The notes: generated from the sequence alone by a model not told the origin. 64,000 bases of DNA from an uncultured Ruegeria sp. (GCF_947504215.1 NZ_CANNGO010000009.1:64264-128263), one strand, 5' to 3'; positions 41,066-46,650 are shown, numbered from the stretch's first letter. Made by a program: numbers and translations.

Positions 41066-42262
41066 ATGCGAACACAAGTCGTCGTGATCGGCGGTGGGCC
41101 GTCAGGTTTGCTTTTGTCGCAGCTGCTTCACGTCCATGGAATTGACAGCGTCGTTCTAGAGAGAAAAACCAAAGACTATGTTCTTAGCCGCATTCGCGCC
41201 GGTGTTCTGGAACAGGGTTTTGTGAACCTGATGGAGCAGGCAGGGGTCGCGAACCGTCTGCGCTCGGAAGGGTTCAAACATGACGGGACGCTGATCGCGT
41301 TCGAAGACGAGAGTTTTCGCATCGATTTTCGCGAACACACCGGTACGCCGGTCTTGGTTTATGGCCAGACAGAAGTCACCCGTGATCTGTACGAGGCCCG
41401 AGAGGCTACAGGTGGTAAGATCATCTTCAACACGGATGACGTCGCAATCCATGACGCGGATACTGATACACCCTGTGTGACCTTTACCGTGGACGGGCAG
41501 CAACAGCGCATCGATACCGATTTTGTGGCCGGTTGCGATGGGTTTCATGGGATCAGCCGTCAAACCATTCCCCTGAGCGTGAGGCGAGAATACGAAAAAG
41601 TGTACCCTTTTGGCTGGCTCGGGCTGCTGTCTGAGACGCCTCCGGTTCATGAGGAACTGATCTATTCGTTGTCGCGACGTGGGTTTGCTCTGTGTTCAAT
41701 GCGCAATGAGAACCTTAGCCGTTACTATATCCAGTGTTCGCTGTCGGATAATCCTGACGACTGGACCGACAGTGCATTTTGGAATGAATTGAAGCGCAGA
41801 ATTCCACAGGAGTTTGCAGATCGCATCGTAACCGGGCCATCTATCGAAAAATCGATCGCGCCGCTTCGGTCATTTGTGACCGAACCGATGCATTGGGGGA
41901 GGCTCTTTTTGTGTGGTGATGCTGCGCATATTGTCCCACCGACCGGGGCCAAGGGGCTGAATACGGCCGCCTCTGATGTGCATTACCTTCACAACGCATT
42001 GCGCGAATTTTACGAAACGGGATCAAGTGAAGGGATCGATAGCTATTCACAAAACGCTCTCGCCCGAATCTGGAAAGCCGAACGGTTTAGTTGGTGGTTT
42101 TCGTCTTTGCTGCATCGGTTTCCGGATCAGTCCGACTTTGACCTAAAGATGCAACGCGCCGAGATCGACTTTTTGCGCACGAACAAGGCTGCACAAAAAG
42201 CGATGGCTGAAAACTATGTAGGATTGCCGTATTGCTGGGTGGAACCAAGGAGATACCGATGA
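41066..42262 (+). CDS. pobA: 4-hydroxybenzoate 3-monooxygenase
   Basis: GGGPSG, RIRAGVLE, GDAAHIVPPTGAKGLN, ENYVGLPY. Confidence 0.97.
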   Translation: MRTQVVVIGGGPSGLLLSQLLHVHGIDSVVLERKTKDYVLSRIRAGVLEQGFVNLMEQAGVANRLRSEGFKHDGTLIAFEDESFRIDFREHTGTPVLVYGQTEVTRDLYEAREATGGKIIFNTDDVAIHDADTDTPCVTFTVDGQQQRIDTDFVAGCDGFHGISRQTIPLSVRREYEKVYPFGWLGLLSETPPVHEELIYSLSRRGFALCSMRNENLSRYYIQCSLSDNPDDWTDSAFWNELKRRIPQEFADRIVTGPSIEKSIAPLRSFVTEPMHWGRLFLCGDAAHIVPPTGAKGLNTAASDVHYLHNALREFYETGSSEGIDSYSQNALARIWKAERFSWWFSSLLHRFPDQSDFDLKMQRAEIDFLRTNKAAQKAMAENYVGLPYCWVEPRRYR

Positions 42263-42642
42263 TTGATCGTCATGCGACGGGAATGTCAGTCCGGCGCCGC
42301 GTTTTGGGTGACGCCCATGTGGATCGTGCCGAAGCGCAGAAATCCGCATTCGATGCGCCATTTCAGGAGATGATCACAGAAACCGCATGGGGCACCTTGT
42401 GGGCAAGCGACGCGATCACGCCACGGGAACGGTCGATGATCACGTTGGCTTTGTTGGCGGCCACCCGGAACTTCGATGAAATCCCGATGCACCTGAAAGC
42501 CTGCGCCAACACGGGAACATCAAAGGAGGATGTCATGCAGGCATTCATGCATGCGGCGGTTTATGCTGGTGTCCCTTGTGCAAATCATGCTGTGAAACTG
42601 GCCAGACAGACATATGCGGAAATGGAAGGCGAGGCCGAATGA
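42259..42642 (+). CDS. pcaC: 4-carboxymuconolactone decarboxylase
   Basis: [30 protein letters not shown]. Confidence 0.93.
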
Positions 42643-43364
42643 CTCAGCCGCCGGATCTGTATCAGCGGGACCGCGACTGGCATCCGCCAGCCTATACGCA
42701 GAACTATAAAACCAGCGTATCGCGGTCACCAAAGAATGCTCTGCTGTCTCTTGAATCCACACTCAGCGAGCTGTCGGGCCCAACCTTCGGCCACAGTGAT
42801 GTCGACCCGTTAGATAATGACCTGATCCGAAACTATGCAAAAACAGGCGATCCGATTGGCGAACGTATTATTTTGCATGGCCGGGTGCTGGATGAAAACG
42901 GCAAGCCGGTGCCCAATACACTGGTAGAGATTTGGCAGGCCAATGCAGGGGGCCGATACCGCCATAAGAAAGACACCTATCTGGCGGCCATCGATCCAAA
43001 TTTCGGGGGCTGTGGGCGTACGCTAACGGATGAGCACGGCTGTTACAGGTTCAGAACGATCAAGCCCGGAGCATACCCCTGGCGCAACTGGATCAACAGT
43101 TGGCGGCCTGCCCATATCCACGTATCGGTTTTCGGGCCTAGCTTTGCACAACGGCTGATCACACAGCTATATTTCGAAGGGGATCCACTGATTGCCAAAT
43201 GCCCGATCGTCAACACCATCCCGGATCAGCGCGCGATCGACCAACTGGTCGCTGCGCTTGATCTGAACGCGACGGTTCCGCTGGACAGTATCGCGTACAA
43301 GTTCGACATCGTCCTTCGCGGACATCGCTCGACTTACTTCGAAAACCGGCCCGAGGGGAACTGA
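42639..43364 (+). CDS. pcaH: Protocatechuate 3,4-dioxygenase beta subunit
   Basis: [24 protein letters not shown] Fe ligands. Confidence 0.96.
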
Positions 43365-44807: not shown

Positions 44808-45592
44808 TGCAACGCTTTGCCAGCATCAATGAGACCCTCATTCACTACGAGGTTAAGTCCGGCAGCACTGGCAAAACACCTGTCGTGTTCCTGAATTCAC
44901 TGGGGACGGATCTGCGGATTTGGCAAGAGGTCGCCGATGCGCTTGACGCTACGACTTGTTTGTTGATTGACAAACGCGGGCACGGTCTATCGGATTGTGG
45001 TGCGACATCTATCGCCATGCTTGCCGACGATGTTTCGGGCCTGATGGACCATTTGGGATGGCAAAGGTCGATCATCTGTGGGGTATCGGTCGGAGGTATG
45101 ATTGCGCAATCGCTGGCTCATCGGCGACCCGACCTCGTGGCGGGTCTGGTTCTTTGCAATACAGGGTCTAAAATTGGGAACGCGCAGGCTTGGAACCAAC
45201 GGATCGACATGGTGTCTGACACTGGGATTGAGGCCATAGCGGAAACCGTGATTGAGCGCTGGTTTTCGAACAACTTCCGTACCAAAATGCCGATCACGGT
45301 TGCCGGGTACCGCAATATGCTGACGCGGACACCTGCCCAAGGTTACGCGGCCACATGCGCGGCCATTCGCGATACAGATTTAACCGACACAACGAAACAC
45401 ATTCGGGTACCTGCCATATGTATTGGAGGTACGGACGATTTGTCGACGCCGCCTGCATGCATACGTGCGCTGTCAGCCCTCATTGAACAATCGCAGTGCC
45501 ACGTTCTGCCTGGCGTGGGGCACCTCCCGTGCATTGAAGCTCCGGAGTTTGTTGCTTCGCAAATCCGGTCCTTGCAGGATGCGCTGTCATGA
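44807..45592 (+). CDS. pcaD: 3-oxoadipate enol-lactonase
   Basis: NSLGTDLRIW, GVSVGG nucleophile, GHLPCIE. Confidence 0.92.
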   Translation: MQRFASINETLIHYEVKSGSTGKTPVVFLNSLGTDLRIWQEVADALDATTCLLIDKRGHGLSDCGATSIAMLADDVSGLMDHLGWQRSIICGVSVGGMIAQSLAHRRPDLVAGLVLCNTGSKIGNAQAWNQRIDMVSDTGIEAIAETVIERWFSNNFRTKMPITVAGYRNMLTRTPAQGYAATCAAIRDTDLTDTTKHIRVPAICIGGTDDLSTPPACIRALSALIEQSQCHVLPGVGHLPCIEAPEFVASQIRSLQDALS

Positions 45593-46650
45593 GCGACGTA
45601 TTCGAGCATCCCTGGTTATCCGGTTTGTTTGGCGACTGTGACGCCGACGCGATCTGGTCGGCACCGCAATCACTGGCCCATATGCTGACATTCGAGGCGG
45701 CCTATTCCCGCGGGTTGGGGGCCATTGGCATCGTGTCATTGCGAGATGCACAAATGGCGGCACAGCGCATAGAATCCGCAAACCCCGATCTTGAGATTTT
45801 GCGGTCGGGAACAGTGCAGGACGGGTTACCTGTGCCCGCGCTGGTTCGGTTTCTAAAGTTGGAAGCGGGGCAATTCAAAAATGCGATCCACACCGGAGCG
45901 ACCTCACAGGATGTGATGGACACTGCGCTGGCGCTCACGTTACGCGAAAACTCGGATTTGTTGGCGGATCGCTTGTCCGAAGTGGTCGATATGTTGGGCC
46001 AGGTCTCAAAAAGATTTGGGTCAAACATGATCATGGGGCGCACACGAATGCAGGCGGCCCTGCCGGTCACGGTTGGGCACCGGCTTGAGACATGGAGCGC
46101 ACCCTTGGCAGAACATCTGCGCCGGCTGGAGCAGATGCGTCCGCGTGCCGAATGTGTCCAGCTTGGCGGTGCCGTCGGCGATGGTCAGGCCATCGGCATA
46201 AAGTATCGCGAATTGGCCGAGTTTCTGGCCAGTGCACTAGAGCTGCATCTGCCGAACCGAAGCTGGCACGCCACCCGCGAGGGCATCACCGAATATGCCA
46301 GCTTTCTGTCTCTGATCTCGGGCTCATTGGGCAAAATGGGCCAGGACATCTGCTTGATGGCGCAGCAGGGCGTGGATGAGATCAAGCTGTCTGGCGGTGG
46401 CGGATCATCGGCAATGCCTCACAAGAAAAACCCTGTTTTGGCCGAGCTGCTGATCACGCTTGCCCGCTTTAACGCGACACGCGTTTCCGGGATGCATCAG
46501 GCGCTTGTGCATGAACAGGAAAGGTCGGGCAGCGCCTGGTCACTAGAGTGGATGATTTTGCCAAGCATGGCAAAGGCAACGGCAAGATCACTGTCGGCGG
46601 CCATCACCCTGTGCACCCAAATTGAATCAATAGGTGAGGCGCGGACATGA
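45589..46650 (+). CDS. pcaB: 3-carboxy-cis,cis-muconate cycloisomerase (short alphaproteobacterial form)
   Basis: GATSQD, GRTRMQ, SSAMPHKKNP fumarase-superfamily signature. Confidence 0.93.
   Translation: MSDVFEHPWLSGLFGDCDADAIWSAPQSLAHMLTFEAAYSRGLGAIGIVSLRDAQMAAQRIESANPDLEILRSGTVQDGLPVPALVRFLKLEAGQFKNAIHTGATSQDVMDTALALTLRENSDLLADRLSEVVDMLGQVSKRFGSNMIMGRTRMQAALPVTVGHRLETWSAPLAEHLRRLEQMRPRAECVQLGGAVGDGQAIGIKYRELAEFLASALELHLPNRSWHATREGITEYASFLSLISGSLGKMGQDICLMAQQGVDEIKLSGGGGSSAMPHKKNPVLAELLITLARFNATRVSGMHQALVHEQERSGSAWSLEWMILPSMAKATARSLSAAITLCTQIESIGEART

Follow-up and report, generated by a model that had tools for sequence, protein, structure and literature searches.

A DUF849 enzyme within the pca operon of an uncultured Ruegeria and its predicted route from beta-ketoadipate through acetoacetate

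In this study, a stretch of 64,000 nucleotides (nt) from an uncultured Ruegeria sp. (GCF_947504215.1, NZ_CANNGO010000009.1:64264-128263; hereafter the window) was analyzed, focusing on positions 41066-46650, where kce, a gene for a DUF849 enzyme of the BKACE family, lies inside a pca operon. We consider it probable that beta-ketoadipate leaves this PcaQ-controlled operon through cleavage by Kce with acetyl-coenzyme A (acetyl-CoA), followed by the action of a housekeeping 3-oxoacid CoA-transferase (ScoAB) and an acetoacetyl-CoA thiolase. The picture is drawn from the observed gene identities, operon structure, absence of pcaF and PcaIJ-type genes from the whole genome, co-occurrence, and synteny. 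The Kce exit and its layout in a pca operon have already been published; the observation made here is correct and not new.

Genes were named by profile models with bit cut-offs (NCBIfam equivalogs, Pfam), and six of the seven genes in 41066-46650 pass equivalog cut-offs. All seven lie on the plus strand, in the order pobA-pcaC-pcaH-pcaG-BKACE (kce)-pcaD-pcaB:

41066-42262, plus strand: pobA, 4-hydroxybenzoate 3-monooxygenase (TIGR02360, 687 bits against a cut-off of 539)
42259-42642, plus strand: pcaC, 4-carboxymuconolactone decarboxylase (TIGR02425, 177 bits against 156)
42639-43364, plus strand: pcaH (TIGR02422, 372 bits against 296)
43367-43966, plus strand: pcaG, protocatechuate 3,4-dioxygenase alpha subunit (TIGR02423, 234 bits against 126)
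43974-44807, plus strand: kce, BKACE/DUF849 protein of 277 aa (PF05853, E = 1e-88; NF053568, 487 bits against 350)
44807-45592, plus strand: pcaD, 3-oxoadipate enol-lactonase, the predicted maker of the Kce substrate (TIGR02427, 302 bits against 256)
45589-46650, plus strand: pcaB (NF004631, 443 bits against 371)

The first-pass annotation had described these genes, in this order, as overlapping or abutting, and both the coordinates and the junctions bear this out. The pobA ATG at 41066 is preceded by GAAGGAGGA, and the likely starts of pcaC (42259), pcaH (42639), pcaG (43367) and pcaB (45589) are also ATG. ATGA overlaps join pobA to pcaC, pcaC to pcaH, pcaD to pcaB, and pcaB to the transporter gene dctP, while gaps of 2 nt and 7 nt separate pcaG from pcaH and kce, respectively. 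The kce ATG (43974), 7 nt past the pcaG stop, has a GAGGAA ribosome-binding site, and the stop of kce and the start of pcaD (ATG 44807) share the overlap TGATG. The kce gene is embedded and translationally coupled within the pca operon.

The Kce protein matches NF053568, the equivalog model for 3-oxoadipate:acetyl-CoA acetyltransferase (NCBIfam label '3OXCoAcCUPNH'), with 487.3 bits (cut-off 350), spanning positions 1-273 of the 274 in the model, and it covers PF05853, the BKACE TIM-barrel, at positions 1-274 of 274. Judged by its sequence, it ranks as orthologous to the curated 3-oxoadipate:acetyl-CoA acetyltransferase, an enzyme that we equate with G4, one of the BKACE/DUF849 groups in Bastard et al. 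2014. The closest solved structure is that of a Paracoccus denitrificans DUF849 protein (3FA5, about 80% identity), and the structures from Silicibacter (Ruegeria) pomeroyi DSS-3 (3CHV, DUF849) and Ralstonia/Cupriavidus (3NO5) show about 76% and 60% identity. The protein fails NF052387, the model for the Kce of lysine fermentation, with 242 bits against a cut-off of 382. The motifs AHCH, QLSTGG, EIEAFD, and RTGLEDN align with the corresponding motifs of 2Y7D, a structure of the lysine-fermentation enzyme (H-x-H, STGG, E, and R..ED), which presumably hold the Zn ligands (H-x-H, Glu) as well as the catalytic residues Glu, Arg, and Asp. Compared with 2Y7D, the Glu of the 'AET' segment is substituted and an Arg stands after STGG (the segment in contact with the substrate tail differs). 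The predicted reaction is beta-ketoadipate + acetyl-CoA -> succinyl-CoA + acetoacetate.

Homologs with 74-83% identity to this Kce are plentiful: Ruegeria, Roseovarius, Paracoccus, Marivita, and many other genera have them, and most of these proteins carry the database name '3-keto-5-aminohexanoate cleavage protein'. This name is probably too specific and wrong for these relatives, because NF052387 fails, the substrate-tail residues differ, and a lysine-fermentation context is absent. Six BKACE-family matches (E <= 0.001) occur in the genome, only one of them above the 3-oxoadipate cut-off; other BKACE paralogs in relatives score about 160-170 bits.

The genome assembly (4.54 Mb, 44 contigs) is 99.83% complete. 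The window contains no pcaIJ or pcaF, as the first-pass annotation had noted, and the thiolase and CoA-transferase matches of the genome all lie on other contigs. That annotation had also proposed a genome search for pcaIJF, which returned no PcaF-class or PcaIJ-type genes. No 3-oxoadipyl-CoA thiolase model (TIGR02430, NF006551, NF006001) was matched above its cut-off genome-wide, the best TIGR02430 score being 401 bits against 597; the four thiolases of the genome are of the BktB or acetoacetyl-CoA thiolase types. A single pair of the PcaI/ScoA and PcaJ/ScoB families, on contig 13 (C13:105847-107171) directly after topA and among housekeeping genes, exceeds the family cut-offs (TIGR02429, 230 against 128.5; TIGR02428, 318 against 243.6). 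Eight true pcaI-pcaJ-pcaF triplets were fetched from relatives as a comparison set. The pair shares no more than 38-49% identity with the PcaIJ of these triplets and 77-91% with the scoAB adjoining kce in eight related loci, indicating that the genome has ScoAB and not PcaIJ. Similarly, Ruegeria, Phaeobacter, and Leisingera have been described as lacking pcaIJ and having an EC 2.8.3.5 enzyme in its place (Giebel 2016). Equivalog-level orthology, operon coupling, and the absence of pcaF and PcaIJ-type genes together make direct cleavage of beta-ketoadipate the best reading.

In the proposed route, the operon would convert 4-hydroxybenzoate to beta-ketoadipate, and Kce, a predicted Zn-dependent BKACE TIM-barrel enzyme, would move the acetyl end of beta-ketoadipate onto acetyl-CoA to give succinyl-CoA and acetoacetate. 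ScoAB, encoded beside topA on contig 13, would then turn acetoacetate and succinyl-CoA into acetoacetyl-CoA and succinate, and acetoacetyl-CoA thiolase would split acetoacetyl-CoA with CoA into two molecules of acetyl-CoA, so that acetoacetate would be recovered by housekeeping enzymes of ketone-body and polyhydroxybutyrate (PHB) metabolism encoded outside the operon. What this Kce acts on, which role ScoAB plays, and how flux runs in vivo are inferred here. The net reaction would be beta-ketoadipate + CoA -> succinate + acetyl-CoA, equal to that of PcaIJ plus PcaF, and thus no energetic gain over the classical exit is expected. The gain would instead be genetic economy, as one dedicated gene together with housekeeping enzymes would stand in for three dedicated genes.

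The exit had been put forward in the first-pass annotation as free of CoA-transferase. Direct cleavage holds as the best reading of the sequence data; independence of a transferase does not, because acetoacetate needs activation, no acetoacetyl-CoA synthetase passes its cut-off, and ScoAB is retained. The route would skip beta-ketoadipyl-CoA and the thiolase dedicated to it but would keep a CoA-transfer step. A strictly transferase-free exit would require acetoacetate to be activated by an ATP-dependent synthetase, or to be excreted or decarboxylated, with growth on succinyl-CoA alone. Three acetyl-CoA-synthetase-like genes give weak acetoacetyl-CoA synthetase matches of 215-246 bits and could be cited in its favor, but no match in the genome reaches the cut-off of 521 bits. 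Moreover, the genome has ScoAB, whose orthologs lie close to kce in relatives, and if acetoacetate were lost, four of the six beta-ketoadipate carbons would go with it (a net loss of two once the acetyl-CoA invested is counted). Selection in Methylobacterium extorquens carrying a kce operon acted on a CoA-transferase gene. We regard such an exit as highly improbable.

To place this locus among its relatives, 80 related kce loci were compared, with thiolases sought in the 8 kb around kce. The kce gene lies directly 3' of pcaG in about 45 of the 80 loci, and none of the 80 has a thiolase within 8 kb of it. In eight loci scoAB starts 0-2.1 kb downstream of kce. Two of these are arranged as pcaDCHG-kce-pcaB-scoAB; the remaining six have no adjacent pca genes, and their readable flanks contain a LysR gene, a catechol 1,2-dioxygenase-like gene, a hydrolase, and benE. 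For example, loci L036, L041, L053, L056, and L059 share a cluster (about 4500-11400 in L036 coordinates) of a LysR gene, a catechol/chlorocatechol 1,2-dioxygenase-like gene, an open reading frame (ORF) of 159 aa with no family match, a PcaD-like hydrolase, kce, scoA, scoB, and benE. This cluster looks like a benzoate/catechol or hydroxyquinol route with Kce and ScoAB at its end. About 27 of the 80 loci have kce without nearby pca genes, in mixed contexts (rpsA, truA, acyl-CoA dehydrogenase).

The distribution of kce was also surveyed in 121 genomes, one per genus of the same family, scored by model cut-offs. Above these cut-offs, kce is found in 89 of the 121 genomes, pcaH in 80, and the ScoB family in 112; pcaH and kce occur together in 72, and pcaH occurs without kce in 8. 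Seven of these eight carry a PcaF-class thiolase above cut-off, and the eighth has a fragment ended by a contig edge. PcaF is absent from 27 of the 72 genomes with both pcaH and kce, including the one studied here. The expected anticorrelation between kce and PcaF was not seen in the whole sample; complementarity appears only within the pcaH-positive genomes. In a class-wide sample of 150 other families, each represented by one genome, kce is present in 10, pcaH in 25, and both in 4, and the two are adjacent in all four. The kce form is the norm in its own family and a minority elsewhere. Two genomes, G013 and G071, carry pcaH with an adjacent PcaF-class thiolase, but neither kce nor a match to the ScoB/PcaJ family; they may use another class of CoA-transferase for beta-ketoadipate.

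These distributions bear on the possibility that the BKACE acts on some other beta-keto acid, for instance one derived from another lignin-derived substrate, and is merely co-regulated with the pca genes. The BKACE family covers many substrate classes, the function of this protein is a prediction, and a kce ortholog is present in 17 of the 41 pcaH-negative genomes of the family sample. However, the equivalog that the protein matches is that of the 3-oxoadipate enzyme, the readable non-pca context (catechol 1,2-dioxygenase-like gene, hydrolase, benE) is probably a catechol or related intradiol route and would likewise end in beta-ketoadipate, and kce stands immediately before pcaD, whose product is beta-ketoadipate. 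We give another substrate very little chance.

The steps after beta-ketoadipate have been studied in Roseovarius nubinhibens. Knockout of the 3-oxoacid CoA-transferase in that species stops growth on 4-hydroxybenzoate; pcaF is dispensable, acetoacetyl-CoA thiolases are said to 'compensate', and the 3-oxoacid CoA-transferase has been assigned as 'pcaIJ'. Beta-ketoadipate is still consumed by the transferase mutant via an 'unknown route' (R. nubinhibens literature). These papers touch on Bastard 2014 only in passing, and no BKACE or aminohexanoate entry was found among the induced genes in the supplement of Xu 2025. It is conceivable, at slightly less than an even chance, that the R. nubinhibens 'pcaIJ' is ScoAB acting on acetoacetate after a putative Kce, and that both the 'crosstalk' and the 'unknown route' are the Kce route. 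The main protocatechuate exit of the Roseobacters, an abundant marine group, would then have been mis-assigned, with aromatic carbon entering at the acetoacetate/PHB node.

The same data have been explained by classical chemistry carried out by non-dedicated enzymes, in which a promiscuous ScoAB serves as beta-ketoadipate:succinyl-CoA transferase and a BktB- or FadA-type thiolase cleaves beta-ketoadipyl-CoA ('pathway crosstalk', Xu et al. 2025). On this view, Kce would be no more than auxiliary or an overflow route. The loss of growth on 4-hydroxybenzoate with accumulation of beta-ketoadipate in the transferase mutant and the partial, redundant effects of thiolase mutations agree with this explanation; the genome studied here encodes a BktB-type thiolase (NF006552, 650 bits against 565), and Giebel 2016 suggested likewise for Ruegeria. 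However, these knockout phenotypes would equally follow from ScoAB working on acetoacetate after the Kce step. Crosstalk also leaves unexplained why kce is about 75-83% conserved and stands directly after pcaG in about 45 of the 80 loci, why it is paired with scoAB and has no thiolase nearby, why all pcaH-positive, kce-negative genomes have a dedicated PcaF-type thiolase, and why the transferase mutant still uses up beta-ketoadipate. We regard crosstalk as unlikely.

Several points weigh against cleavage by Kce as the exit. The transferase mutant of R. nubinhibens builds up beta-ketoadipate, and more of it when acetate is plentiful (R. nubinhibens literature). Greater accumulation with acetate, and hence with acetyl-CoA, is a simpler fit if the transferase acts on beta-ketoadipate itself, so that the R. 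nubinhibens data are ambiguous and fit the Kce route, though not cleanly. In the literature searched, no assay or knockout has been reported for this Kce or for any Roseobacter kce. In the family sample, a PcaF-class thiolase is present in 54 of the 89 kce-positive and 19 of the 32 kce-negative genomes, which indicates that kce is not in every genome a simple substitute; these PcaF-class thiolases are probably mostly PaaJ of phenylacetate catabolism. The genomes of the family are kin and not independent, and the counts are thus descriptive and do not amount to a test.

Regulatory genes lie upstream of the operon, which continues past 46650 with dctP, dctQ, and dctM up to 49695, genes of a tripartite ATP-independent periplasmic (TRAP) transporter:

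40052-40996, minus strand: pcaQ, LysR-type activator of pca genes, divergent (TIGR02424 equivalog, 371.9 bits against 303.8)
46647-47759, plus strand: dctP, TRAP solute-binding subunit, DctP family (PF03480, E = 6e-39)
47814-48311, plus strand: dctQ, TRAP small membrane subunit (PF04290, E = 6e-21)
48271-49695, plus strand: dctM, TRAP large membrane subunit (PF06808, E = 3e-78; TIGR00786, 258 bits, under the cut-off of 268)

The model alignment of PcaQ begins at residue 13, suggesting that its true start probably lies some codons inside the annotated ORF. PcaQ would control pobA-pcaCHG-kce-pcaDB as a single operon, with the TRAP transporter genes after it. No clear palindrome was recognized when the interval between pcaQ and pobA was inspected for a PcaQ box, and scans for promoters and terminators gave no signal above the shuffled background. 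Adjoining pcaQ is a gene for an AraC-family regulator (38728-39921, minus strand; HTH_18, E = 6e-17), which could be of the PobR type, although pobA is here joined to the operon on the PcaQ side.

Because dctP is coupled to pcaB by the ATGA overlap, the TRAP genes (46647-49695) belong to the pca operon; dctP and dctM also follow pcaB in several Paracoccus loci. The real start of dctM is probably ATG 48304 or 48316. TRAP uptake of 4-hydroxybenzoate has been reported for R. nubinhibens (R. nubinhibens literature), and the transporter encoded here likely imports 4-hydroxybenzoate or protocatechuate. An inverted repeat, GAGAGGGG...CCCCTCTC, was spotted by eye at 47765-47800, within the 54 nt that separate dctP from dctQ. 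This putative hairpin may stabilize the mRNA or attenuate transcription, favoring an excess of the binding protein. Past the TRAP genes, at 49938-50965 (minus strand) and 50943-51926 (plus strand), lie a lumazine-binding/SnoaL-like small protein, a GstA-type glutathione transferase, and a LysR regulator, with no evident tie to the pca operon.

In coastal seas, much of the aromatic acid released from lignin and algae is consumed by Roseobacters, which are also under development as chassis for lignin upgrading. An exit through Kce and acetoacetate, if true, bears on metabolic models of these bacteria. For strain design it would mean that a block in 'pcaIJ', intended to make beta-ketoadipate accumulate, leaves a leak through Kce, which the published R. 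nubinhibens strain seems to show. For annotation, the '3-keto-5-aminohexanoate cleavage protein' label on relatives is probably to be corrected; for positions 41066-46650 themselves, the result is routine annotation.

In comparison with known systems, Kce resembles the 3-oxoadipate:acetyl-CoA acetyltransferase of NF053568 in predicted fold and in its metal and catalytic motifs, and no difference from it is detectable by sequence. A conserved ORF directly after pcaG, co-expressed with the pca genes, was reportedly present in all Roseobacter isolates studied by Buchan, Neidle and Moran in 2004; this ORF, like 3CHV, is of the same lineage as the Ruegeria kce and holds the same position directly after pcaG. 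The usual order in related loci has pcaD ahead of pcaC and pcaB next after kce, whereas in this Ruegeria pcaD has been relocated between kce and pcaB. The Kce of lysine fermentation (PDB 2Y7D-G) has the same fold, the same Zn ligands, and the same transfer of an acetyl group onto acetyl-CoA to give acetoacetate; it differs in the substrate-tail residues, and the Ruegeria locus offers no lysine-fermentation context. The classical PcaIJ plus PcaF of Pseudomonas putida and Acinetobacter baylyi have the same substrate and net reaction as the Kce route, in which, however, no beta-ketoadipyl-CoA intermediate would be formed; true pcaIJF triplets are present in some relatives.

The closest likeness is to the kce clusters of Methylobacterium. 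Lee et al. 2022 (PMC8963497) described a DUF849 gene between pcaG and pcaB in Methylobacterium clusters without pcaIJF, citing Bastard 2014 for G4 BKACEs acting on beta-ketoadipate. The gene was later named kce (mSphere 2025, PMC12379598; bioRxiv 10.64898/2026.03.02.709203). According to the kce papers, plasmid-borne pca genes of M. nodulans (pcaHGBL-kce) together with van genes allow M. extorquens PA1 to grow on protocatechuate and vanillate, and the evolved lines repeatedly acquired adaptive mutations upstream of a 3-oxoacid CoA-transferase gene. As in Ruegeria, the DUF849 gene of these clusters lies among pca genes without pcaIJF, and formation of succinyl-CoA and acetoacetate, followed by a 3-oxoacid CoA-transferase, has been proposed. 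The two differ in gene order, which is pcaHGBL-kce or pcaG-DUF849-pcaB in Methylobacterium and pcaG-kce-pcaD-pcaB in Ruegeria. Only the Ruegeria operon includes pobA and a TRAP transporter, has separate pcaC and pcaD in place of a fused pcaL, and comes from a marine host.

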